Under the pieces are notes generated by a model. The model saw nothing but the letters and a program-made list of their open reading frames with translations. It was not told where the DNA came from and ran no database searches. The position numbers were made by a program, and so were the translations under genes. Source: Candidatus Sumerlaeia bacterium (lineage in GTDB: Bacteria; Sumerlaeota; Sumerlaeia; SLMS01). Taken from it: DNA of 35,441 nt. The stretch's first letter is position 1; each line of letters begins with the position of its first letter. Positions 25,947 to 27,852 of this stretch are shown piece by piece. The stretch is taken from contig JBBQYG010000020.1 of NCBI GenBank assembly GCA_038208905.1, forward strand, positions 1 through 35,441, in the 5' to 3' direction.

Positions 25947-26795
25947 ATGGACCCTGAAGAAATCGAACCCCGGCTGGAACAGCTCTACGAATCCGCCAAG
26001 TCCGCCAGCAGCGAGGGCCTGGTCGAGGAAGCGCTCAAGCGTTGCGAGGAGGCCCTCCTCCTCCTCGACAGCTATGGCGAGGACACCGAGCGCCACAGCT
26101 ACTCCGACTTCGTGATGCTCGTGGGCGACGTCCACTGGGGCGCCGGCGACTATGAGCAGGCCTGCCAGGCCTATCACAAGGTGGTCCTCAACGACCCCGA
26201 GCGCATCGACGCGCGCATCGCGACCGGCGTGGCGCTCTATCACCTGTGCCGCTTTTCCGCCGCCCAGAACATGCTGGAGCTTGCCAGCATCGACGAACCC
26301 GAGGACGGCGAGGTGTGGTACTACCTGGGCCTCCTCGCGCTGCGTCAGGGGAAATCCTCCGTCGCCATGCGCCACTTCGCCGAGGCCCACGAGCTGGACG
26401 AGGAGCGCTTCGTCCTCCCCGTCGAGACCTCCGACGCGCAGATTGCGGAGATTGTGGAACACCTCCTCGACGACATCCCCGAGGAGCTTCGCGCCGCCCT
26501 CCACAACGTCCCCATCGTGCTCGAACGCCACCCCGACGAGGAGTTGCTCCTGGAGAGCGAACCGCCCATGGACCCCATGGTCCTTGGCCTCTTCGAAGGC
26601 ACCCCCATCACCGCCGCCCAATCCACCGACGTCCCCACCAGCCCCACCCGCATCGTCCTCTATGCCGAGAACATCTGGCTCCTCGGCGCCGACCAGGAGA
26701 CGCTCGAAGAAGAACTCTTCATCACCCTCAAGCACGAGATCGGGCACTACTTCGGCCTGTCGGAGGACGACCTGACGGAGCGGGGACTGGATTGA
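25947..26795 (+). CDS. TPR + Zincin_1 (minimal zinc metallopeptidase) protein
   Basis: N-terminal TPRs; LGLFEG, RIVLY, TLKHEIGHYFGLSEDDL (HExxH); start at ATG 25947. Confidence 0.87.
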   Translation: MDPEEIEPRLEQLYESAKSASSEGLVEEALKRCEEALLLLDSYGEDTERHSYSDFVMLVGDVHWGAGDYEQACQAYHKVVLNDPERIDARIATGVALYHLCRFSAAQNMLELASIDEPEDGEVWYYLGLLALRQGKSSVAMRHFAEAHELDEERFVLPVETSDAQIAEIVEHLLDDIPEELRAALHNVPIVLERHPDEELLLESEPPMDPMVLGLFEGTPITAAQSTDVPTSPTRIVLYAENIWLLGADQETLEEELFITLKHEIGHYFGLSEDDLTERGLD

Positions 26796-26800
26796 TTGAG

Positions 26801-26945
26801 GGCGGGGAACGGCGGGAACAGCGGTAACGACGGACAAAACCGCCCCCCCGACATCCCCGCATTCTTGCTCTCTGCCCTTCCCGCCGTTCCCCGCCGTTCC
26901 CGCCGTCCCCTGCCGTTCCCGCCGTTCCCCGCCGTTCCCGCCGTT
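26801..26945. repeat. Inverted array of 9/10-bp tandem repeats
   Basis: GGCGGGGAAC-GGCGGGAAC-AGCGGTAAC on the left; about seven (C)CCCGCCGTT units at 26878-26945. Confidence 0.8.
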
Positions 26946-26981
26946 AAATGACTTCCCCCGACCACTGGCCGGGGGAAGTCA
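26945..26981 (-). terminator. Strong hairpin, likely (bidirectional) terminator
   Basis: Perfect 12-bp stem TGACTTCCCCCG (26949-26960) / CGGGGGAAGTCA (26970-26981); short T run on the minus strand. Confidence 0.65.
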
Positions 26982-27115
26982 CGATGGCTTGATTGGGAAT
27001 TAGGCCTCTCGGCTTAACTGCCGACTCGTCATCGGAAGGGTGGCCGAGGGGCTAAGAAGCCGCCACCTCGCTATAATTGGCCCGGCAACAACTCATCTGA
27101 CCACCTCCTTTCCTA
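26982..27115 (-). ncRNA. Candidate structured small RNA carrying an extended SD and a 14-codon ORF
   Basis: GGAAAGGAGGTGG SD; stems GGTGGC/GCCACC enclosing GGCT-TCTT-AGCC; TCGGC-AGTTAA-GCCGA hairpin; followed directly by the terminator. Confidence 0.5.
27052..27096 (-). CDS. Small ORF MSCCRANYSEVAAS (14 aa)
   Basis: ATG at 27096 is 6 nt downstream of GAAAGGAGGT; TAG at 27052-27054. Too short for the supplied ORF track. Confidence 0.45.
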   Translation of the reverse strand: MSCCRANYSEVAAS

Positions 27116-27291
27116 GCGTTGCAGCGAGTGATCGGCAGGGGCGGGGCTGGGGTCAACACTTAAATGATGGGATACATACGAATTGGAGCGAAGCTGGGGA
27201 TAAGTGCCGGGGGGGCGGTGAAACTGCGCCGAACTTCATCGGTCCCATTCCTCCTGTTCCCCCGCCACGCGTTACTATGCCGGCCGCAACC

Positions 27292-27852
27292 TCAGCCCGG
27301 CGAGTAGTCGCTCGCGCGGAAGACATCGCCGCGGCTGATGGTGCCGTTCGTCGGATCATAGAGTGTATATTCGTAGCCGACCACGCCGCCATAGAACAGC
27401 TCGGGCGTATATCCGGGATAGAAGCGGATCGGGTTGGTGTCGTCGATGCGGTCGGGGCCGTCGCTGGCGAGTGCGTATCGGTGGGCGGCCTCGAGCGGCA
27501 TGGTGCCAAACTTGTAGTCGCCGACGGATCGCCACGGCCCGGGGCCGCCGGGGTCGTCGGGGGCGAAGGGATCGTTCGGCACGCTGGTGATATACGATAT
27601 CGGCGTCGTGATCGACGTGAAGCGGCGGAAGCGCGGCACGAAATTCGTCTGGGGATAGGCGTTGGAATCCACGTAGTACGCGGCGAGCGCCGTTGCGAGC
27701 GTGCGCAGGTCGGCGCGGACGCGTGTGGTCTTGGACCGCGTCTGGGCCTCCAGGAAATTCGGCACCGCGATCGCCGCCAGGATGGCGATGATCGCGACCA
27801 CAACCAGCAGTTCGATGAGGGTAAAGGCGTTGATGCGGCGCGTGGTTGCCAT
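27292..27852 (-). CDS. Prepilin/GspG-like pseudopilin (AVPNFLEAQTRSK...YDPTNG family)
   Basis: A|FTLIELLVVVAIIAILAAIAVPNFLEAQTRSK, DPF, SDGPD, YDPTNGTISRGD; ATG 27852 with GGAG SD. Confidence 0.87.
   Translation of the reverse strand: MATTRRINAFTLIELLVVVAIIAILAAIAVPNFLEAQTRSKTTRVRADLRTLATALAAYYVDSNAYPQTNFVPRFRRFTSITTPISYITSVPNDPFAPDDPGGPGPWRSVGDYKFGTMPLEAAHRYALASDGPDRIDDTNPIRFYPGYTPELFYGGVVGYEYTLYDPTNGTISRGDVFRASDYSPG

Follow-up and report, generated by a model that had tools for sequence, protein, structure and literature searches.

A Sumerlaeia RNA unit that is very probably a divergent member of the Ms_IGR-5 family, with a conserved short reading frame that may be kept for its translation and not for its peptide

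Here we describe a predicted RNA gene on the minus strand of contig JBBQYG010000020.1 from Candidatus Sumerlaeia bacterium (assembly GCA_038208905.1); the whole contig, 35,441 nucleotides (nt) long, is called the window below. Within the unit, which lies at 27156-26946, a previous sequence-only reading had picked out a −35 box, an extended Shine-Dalgarno (SD) sequence, an open reading frame (ORF) for 14 amino acids, hairpins, and a terminator, and all of these parts are present on the minus strand. Our comparison across genomes indicates that the unit very probably belongs to the Ms_IGR-5 family (Rfam RF02471) as a divergent member present in one copy, and it is well supported that a new phylum thereby contributes a divergent member to a known, uncharacterised RNA family. 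Ms_IGR-5 is an actinobacterial small RNA (sRNA) that was reportedly first described by Li and colleagues in 2013 from Mycobacterium smegmatis; the literature that we searched held no functional study of the family, which does not prove that none exists. The family extends far beyond the Actinomycetota, and its Sumerlaeota branch is missed at the Rfam cut-off. Its most conserved features make up a translation unit, that is, an SD matching the 16S rRNA, a stop codon fixed to a helix in two reading frames, and a peptide that drifts. We consider it rather likely, from these sequence comparisons, that translation is part of the function of the RNA, and we cautiously favor a regulatory RNA that is translated, its fold being opened by the ribosome, with selection acting on translation and not on the peptide. 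The interest of the unit lies in the wide spread of its family and in this translation-centered design, visible from cross-phylum comparison, which gives concrete form to the hypothesis of an RNA whose job depends on translation or on holding ribosomes.

The comparison with Rfam that the sequence-only reading had suggested gives no match in the window at gathering cut-offs. At a relaxed threshold, RF02471 aligns from end to end with 26946-27119 (minus strand) at 15.3 bits against a cut-off of 45, with an E value of 0.11 to 0.57 depending on the stretch searched, a match that by itself would not count as evidence of membership. The RF02471 consensus itself shows two boxes, GGAAGGAgGugGuCc and GUGAGGUGgCug, and both the 5′ box (GGAAGGAGGUGGUCC) and the second box (GAGGUGGCUG) of this consensus are present in the window in the same order and at the same spacing. 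We built a covariance model of the 5′ domain, R1, from 42 diverse homologues with the window left out; its seeds were found via the shared boxes and include two loci (L037 and L020) that both pass Rfam. R1 gives 27049-27121 (minus strand) of the window 58.2 bits (E = 7.9e-14 in a search of the 4.24-Mb genome) and no other site of that genome more than 17.9 bits; the unit exceeds chance expectation. When 10 loci carrying the two-box pattern were given to Rfam, 3 passed RF02471, from Streptomyces (59 bits), Nonomuraea (56.1 bits), and an acidobacterium (47.7 bits). A proposed resemblance to the Acido-1 motif (RF01686) did not survive this comparison: the unit gave no match to that model at E values up to 10, a search of the whole genome returned nine weak matches, none of them on the window's contig, and the family is RF02471. 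Acido-1 and the unit are alike as orphan intergenic RNA motifs of soil bacteria but differ in that the Acido-1 model does not match.

The window unit and Ms_IGR-5 share the two boxes and their spacing, a terminator of their own, a single gene copy, variable neighbors, and possibly a GGUGG-CCACC pairing. In both, a short ORF stops 8 nt past the box, and the Ms_IGR-5 consensus can be read by eye as UUG ... GAG GUG GCU GCC CGC UAG. The window unit differs from Ms_IGR-5 in lacking the hairpin P1 between the boxes, in the proximal position of its CCACC partner, and in its host, which is not an actinomycetote; its helix H0, described below, is also longer (5 bp) than in actinobacterial Ms_IGR-5 (about 3). 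As for the spread of the family, 9 of 40 related genomes gave matches in a DNA search, each of them on the SD-ORF part, at ∼75 to 92% identity. R1 matches occur in 37 of 75 genomes of the window's phylum, the Sumerlaeota, exactly one in each, and in 24 of the 43 genomes of high quality. A scan of the genome collection for the two-box motif (GAAAGGAGGTGRTC, 15 to 45 nt, AGCGAGGTGG) returned at least 120 records, many of them from Nonomuraea, Streptosporangium, and Streptomyces; among the motif matches listed are also Planctomycetota, Acidobacteriota, Sumerlaeota/BRC1, Armatimonadota, an Entotheonellaceae genome, and a metagenome-assembled genome labeled “Deltaproteobacteria.”

The extended SD, GGAAAGGAGGUGGUC (DNA GGAAAGGAGGTGGTC, a purine run), occupies 27113-27099; over its last 14 nt it complements the free 16S tail, one of the pairs being G-U. 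Of this run, GGAAAGGAGGTGG covers 27113-27101, and the complement to the 16S tail extends on to 27099 as GAAAGGAGGTGGTC. We took the 16S tail from two genomes of the same class because the window's own 16S gene was not assembled; no 16S gene was found in the window's assembly, nor in 2 of the 5 relatives searched. These two genomes carry the RNA themselves, and their 16S rRNA ends in ...GGCUGGAUCACCUCCUUUCU. In one genome, G047, the RNA (locus L164) reads GAAAGGAGGUGGUCCA and can form 16 contiguous pairs, one of them G-U, with the 16S end of its own genome. The 14 contiguous pairs of the window SD make it one of only 7 sites with at least 14 pairs on both strands of the 4.24-Mb genome, in a scan that allowed G-U pairs, used a 15-nt 16S tail, and assumed the same tail as in the same-class genomes; several of the other such sites are G runs. 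The SD is invariant in the relatives, an invariance partly forced by the design of the search. Our analysis supports the ribosome-recruiting design that had been proposed for the unit. The ATG lies 4 nt after GGTGG and 7 nt after GGAGG, and not at the spacing of 6 nt that had been given. Elsewhere, a perfect 16-nt complement of the 16S end, GAAAGGAGGTGATCCA, was met at C130:5525; it lies inside an apparent coding region of the opposite strand without the unit of ORF and terminator, and we took it as a chance occurrence.

The ORF that follows the SD, MSCCRANYSEVAAS, runs over 14 codons from the ATG at 27096 to the TAG stop at 27054-27052, that is, 8 nt past the second box. This arrangement recurs in each of the 127 distinct sequences compared, which all contain an ORF of 11 to 19 codons that starts 6 to 14 nt after GGAGG and stops 7 to 11 nt after the second box. 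The 37 R1 hits in the phylum were not chosen by the pattern and form a less biased set; 36 of them keep an ORF of 11 to 14 codons ending exactly 8 nt past the box, compared to a mean retention of 0.17 after shuffling of the variable stretch. The 36 ORFs end in TAG (28), TAA (6), or TGA (2) and start with ATG (22) or TTG (14). By our own count of the 127 listed sequences, 106 read the second box in a frame that encodes SEV, and 21 in a frame that encodes QRGG or ERGG; these 21 belong to the Planctomycetota and Armatimonadota and read the same nucleotides one base over. Retention of the ORF in two frames and in several phyla is hard to explain without selection for translation.

The peptide itself behaves differently, in that the same nucleotides encode a C-terminal half of SEVAxx when read in one frame and of QRGGxx or ERGGWSx when read in another. 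The variable codons are rich in cysteine (24 of 190, compared to 0.9% in the genome), tyrosine (24 of 190; genome, 2.2%), and serine (31 of 190; genome, 6.0%), and a Y-x-C-[TS]-S motif recurs in Sumerlaeota, Planctomycetota, and Bryobacterales, even across differing downstream frames. Cysteine is spelled TGT 18 times and TGC 6 times in these codons, a preference contrary to usage in the window's genome (758 TGT, 4,095 TGC), which indicates a constraint on the nucleotides. No cysteine occurs in the actinobacterial ORFs listed, in which, by our own uncounted reading, exchanges of Trp/Arg and Thr/Ala affect codons that make up the 3′ strand of P1, the 5′ strand changing along with them. Because the frame changes between phyla, the cysteine codons run against the genome's bias, and the second box is explained by pairing in the helices H0 and P2, the peptide, which varies between phyla, appears unlikely to be the selected product.

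In the helix that we call H0, CGCUN directly 5′ of the SD pairs with N′AGCG of the second box; in the window, the 5′ strand CGCUA (27118-27114) faces UAGCG (27073-27069). The second conserved box, AGCGAGGUGG at 27072-27063 (reading AGCGAGGUGGC over 27072-27062), contributes AGCG to this 3′ strand, and its SD-like GGUGGC (27067-27062) is the 5′ strand of P2. A perfect H0 of 5 bp is present in 29 of the 36 phylum sequences and at least four pairs in 35, with the variants CGCUA/UAGCG, CGCUG/CAGCG, CACUG/CAGUG, and CGCCG/CGGCG. On an alignment of the 36 distinct phylum sequences, fitted to a model that itself contains no H0, 87.8% of the cells pair and three of the five pairs change on both sides; none of 500 shuffles reaches the observed values, and controls in which the strands were slid show 11 to 50% pairing. 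In P2, GGUGG and the next five bases pair with five bases and CCACC, usually just before the terminator. The variable half of P2 forms all five pairs in 57 and four of five pairs in 63 of 143 sequences, compared to 13.8% and 41.2%, respectively, when the strands of other sequences are used as a control; variants include UUGUC/GGCAA, CUGCG/CGCAG, UCACG/CGUGA, and CCGAG/CUCGG. The window has two options for P2, since GGUGGC can pair with a proximal GCCACC or with a distal GCCAUC (six pairs, one of them G-U), whereas the P2 partner of most relatives lies further downstream, just before the terminator. The relatives also share a conserved, unpaired AAUCC motif. In the minimum-energy fold of the window sequence taken singly, the distal stretch of UAAUUCCC and GCCAUC pairs with the 3′ part of the first SD.

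The SD and its spacing to the start codon, the frame and stop of the ORF, H0, P2, and the terminator are conserved among the homologues, and our comparisons place the gene, present in a single copy, in the Ms_IGR-5 family; the sequence-only reading had let its case depend on homologues that keep this spacing or the stems. We infer that the unit is transcribed and translated in this organism and that its fold acts as a switch with an output. The RNA would be made from its own promoter, starting a few bases 5′ of CGCUA, and would end at its own terminator. H0 would close a loop displaying the start codon and, ahead of it, an SD that can pair with the free 16S tail over its whole length. A ribosome would load with unusually high affinity and read the 14 codons, opening H0 and P2 (GGUGG:CCACC) en route, and would halt 3 nt past the P2 strand and 8 nt past the second box, before the 3′ domain and the terminator. 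At the stop, the second box would lie 5 nt 5′ of the P-site codon; such a spacing is SD-like, so the box may keep the ribosome in place as it terminates. Once the RNA is being translated, its distal 3′ strand with the AAUCC motif (in relatives, AAUCC..CAG(U)CCACCG; AAUCC..CAGUCCACCG) would become available to a putative partner. The RNA would alternate between two folds, one closed and untranslated, the other open and translated. Selection would keep ribosome loading, passage, and a stop at a fixed place. We offer the closed/open switch in this particular form tentatively, as a possibility suggested by the arrangement of the conserved parts. Published work on other hosts bears on expression: a passage of PMC8079986 reports detection of the Ms_IGR-5 transcript in S. 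lividans, one in PMC8780764 describes a match between Ms_IGR-5 and an sRNA transcription unit in S. avermitilis, and, for M. abscessus and M. smegmatis, one in PMC4974804 counts Ms_IGR-5 with the sRNAs that have “significant ribosomal reads.”

Several observations weigh against this interpretation and against the family assignment beneath it. The RF02471 score of the unit falls below the Rfam cut-off and the next place in its own genome, at 14.8 bits, is barely lower; none of 20 phylum homologues passes the cut-off; and hairpin P1, clear in Actinobacteria and in one acidobacterium, is absent from the window's family. The invariance of the two boxes arises partly by construction, the loci from the collection having been found by a pattern that contains the boxes and the relatives by the window itself. 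A simple consensus scan called neither a σ70 promoter nor a terminator at the unit, where the −10 box is weak and the T tail short. The minimum-energy fold of the window sequence lacks H0, and P2 in the window has only 6 bp, with three of five pairs in its variable half. One of the 37 phylum homologues (L177) has no stop at the usual place, and because the homologues are related, the contrast between ORF retention and shuffled sequences overstates the number of independent events. The enrichment in cysteine, tyrosine, and serine, together with the recurring Y-x-C-T-S, keeps a role for the peptide alive.

This last point is the starting place for an alternative in which the RNA is a plain mRNA for a micropeptide of 11 to 19 residues, perhaps dependent on its cysteine, with structure serving only stability and high expression. 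Speaking for it are an ORF that all 127 sequences of the one set and 36 of the 37 of the other retain, the composition of the variable codons, and the recurrence of Y-x-C-[TS]-S across phyla and frames. Yet the C-terminal half is switched in frame on the same nucleotides, the actinobacterial ORFs listed do without cysteine, the preference for TGT opposite to genome usage points to the nucleotides, and the residue differences in Actinobacteria track changes in the P1 strands; we consider such a peptide message improbable. The opposite alternative is an untranslated regulatory RNA that binds a protein or other RNAs, its SD likeness and its ORF being by-products of purine-rich helices. In its favor, the second box is explained by pairing in each of its halves, many lineages and the minimum-energy fold of the window have the 3′ part of the first SD in a stem, the AAUCC motif is conserved and unpaired, and Rfam lists Ms_IGR-5 as an sRNA. 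Against this stand the ORF retention of 36 of 37 compared to 0.17 when shuffled, the use of all three stop codons at one fixed place, the start codon at SD-compatible spacing in every sequence, and the ribosome protection in mycobacteria mentioned in a passage of PMC4974804, and we give an untranslated RNA little chance.

A further possibility is that the RNA parks ribosomes as an analogue of 6S RNA, a maximal SD on an abundant, stable RNA holding 30S subunits or 70S ribosomes when elongation is poor, and translation of the mini-ORF up to its stop releasing them, as pRNA synthesis frees RNA polymerase from 6S RNA. In its boldest form, such a parking RNA would exist in at least six phyla, its two SD-like boxes would position the first and the last codon in the P site, and the ORF between them would be a built-in release track; the RNA would then be the ribosome's counterpart of 6S RNA or else a test-drive message for new subunits. 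The long pairing with the 16S 3′ end (up to 16 contiguous pairs in G047, 14 in the window) fits this proposal, as do the retention of ORF and stop but not of the peptide, the position of a second SD-like box 4 to 7 nt before the last sense codon in both frames, the single-copy, housekeeping-like gene without fixed neighbors, and the ribosome-protected mycobacterial reads of which a passage in PMC4974804 speaks. A sponge, however, requires a copy number near that of the ribosomes, about half of the genomes of the phylum show no copy, and the second box is wholly explained by H0 and P2 pairing, so that its SD likeness may be incidental. We regard parking, the dual P-site placement, and a release by translation as unlikely; if true, they would reveal a global regulator of a new kind, acting on the translation machinery, and otherwise the unit is a well-defined orphan RNA worth annotating. 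The least probable explanation, and to us a very doubtful one, is a leader-peptide attenuator of downstream genes (DUF2284 and RNase III in the family) that a rearrangement has uncoupled in the window. A short ORF, alternative stems, and a terminator make up an attenuator-like architecture, and local synteny exists within the window's family, where five relatives (L010, L011, L012, L014, and L015) have an RNase III gene on the same strand within ∼1.5 kb, in three of them directly after a DUF2284 gene, which lies between it and the upstream RNA gene; the window has lost this arrangement. However, the window's next gene is convergent, in 12 of 28 phylum loci, by our count, the first ORF downstream lies on the other strand, the neighbors in other phyla are wholly different, and the alternative stems of the window are not conserved. 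The stop codon also lies far 5′ of the terminator, so that a ribosome would not reach the latter. We agree with the view that the unit is no classical attenuator and, having its own −35 box and terminator and being the leader of no downstream gene in the window, stands alone.

The translated regulatory RNA that we favor resembles several known systems in part. Leader peptides such as trpL and ermCL are very short ORFs whose translation, not product, remodels RNA helices, with a terminator downstream; the window unit differs from them in that no regulated gene follows it (nor many of its relatives), it has no run of regulatory codons, and its stop is fixed to a helix and not to an anti-terminator. 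The dual-function sRNAs SgrS/SgrT, SR1/SR1P, and RNAIII/hld encode longer peptides that are conserved as peptides; the unit is like them a small stand-alone transcript with structure and an ORF and unlike them in that its reading frame shifts between phyla. 6S RNA is stable, imitates the natural ligand of RNA polymerase, and is set free when this core machine uses it as a template; on the boldest reading of our data, the unit would likewise be a stable ligand mimic released in this way, with the ribosome as its machine.

The −35 box TTGACC (27156-27151) is followed 17 nt further 3′ by a putative, weak −10 box, GATCAC (27133-27128). Among 36 distinct phylum homologues, 30 have TTG[AC] 44 to 57 nt 5′ of the SD, with 28 placements at −44 to −47, and the relatives show, by eye, TnTAAT-like hexamers at the place of the −10. 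The predicted transcript would extend from 27122, a 5′ end set by promoter spacing, to 26946, a 3′ end set by the terminator; its length of about 175 nt agrees with the ∼170 nt expected by the sequence-only reading. Lengths predicted across the phylum homologues span 165 to 276 nt, with 174 nt for the window. It folds better than all of 200 shuffles (z = −3.9). The stop codon of the window ORF lies in a hairpin, GGCU-UCUU-AGCC (27061-27050), in whose place the relatives have, by eye, GGCUG/CAGCC or GGCAG/CUGCC, and GGUGGC and its proximal 6-bp partner GCCACC (27044-27039) bracket this hairpin. Further 3′, the two mutually exclusive stems that had been noticed before, CCGA/TCGG (27035-27021) and TCGGC/GCCGA (27024-27009) with TCGG common to both, do exist in the window but are specific to it; the middle domain that holds them (27009-27035) varies in sequence and length among relatives. 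UAAUUCCC (27002-26995) and GCCAUC (26988-26983) occupy the place homologous to AAUCC..CAG(U)CCACCG of the relatives, which contains the distal P2 strand. The terminator hairpin at 26980-26950 has 11 bp (GACTTCCCCCG/CGGGGGAAGTC), the fold extending to 16 pairs, and the tail 3′ of it, AUUUAAC, runs to 26943 with a T run of only three T (ATTT). All 36 phylum homologues have a stable hairpin with a T-rich stretch behind it.

The genomic surroundings of the unit in the window differ from those of its relatives. Upstream, on the minus strand, the gene for a pilin-like protein that carries an N-terminal methylation motif ends at 27292; downstream, a gene with TPR and Zincin_1 domains ends at 26795 on the plus strand, and because this neighbor is convergent, no gene follows the unit on its own strand. 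Neither of these flanking genes is connected with peptide maturation. The Nonomuraea and Trebonia loci have a gene of the Fur family on one side and a THAP4-like heme-binding gene on the other, the Streptomyces locus is flanked by a PAS/GAF gene and a pyridoxamine-phosphate oxidase gene, and other lineages have unrelated neighbors. Context is thus not conserved across the family, and such variable neighbors fit a self-contained gene and not a leader. Between the pilin-like gene and the unit, a second SD-like AGGAGG (27255-27250, minus strand) precedes ATG codons at 27248 and 27239 in a frame of ∼28 codons (27153-27255), which lies just after the stop of the pilin-like gene and ends in a TGA that shares bases with the −35 box of the unit.

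Directly 3′ of the terminator, a tandem array of a 9/19-nt unit (GGCGGGAAC/GGCGGGGAAC) occupies 26874-26945 on the minus strand, and a short inverted copy of it lies at 26801-26833; together, the two form a long hairpin. Array-like stretches are present at dozens of sites in the genome (48 matches, including the query itself), and the stretch at 26801-26945 looks like a dispersed intergenic repeat of the REP (repetitive extragenic palindromic) type. Weak matches to Rfam microRNA families at 26797-26919 arise from the long hairpin of this neighboring repeat and not from the unit, and we set them aside. DnaA-box-like words (TTATTCACA or TTTTCCACA, or their complements TGTGGAAAA/TGTGGATAA) occur ∼77 to 94 nt 5′ of the SD in 13 of the 36 phylum homologues (L151, L152, L156, L157, L165, L166, L168, L171, L176 to L179, and L188), at a near-constant distance upstream of the −35 box and where less than one would be expected by chance on a rough estimate; the window copy has none, and the words may be the site of a regulator. 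tRNA genes are found 0.3 to 1.3 kb from the RNA gene in three loci (L162, L178, and L020).

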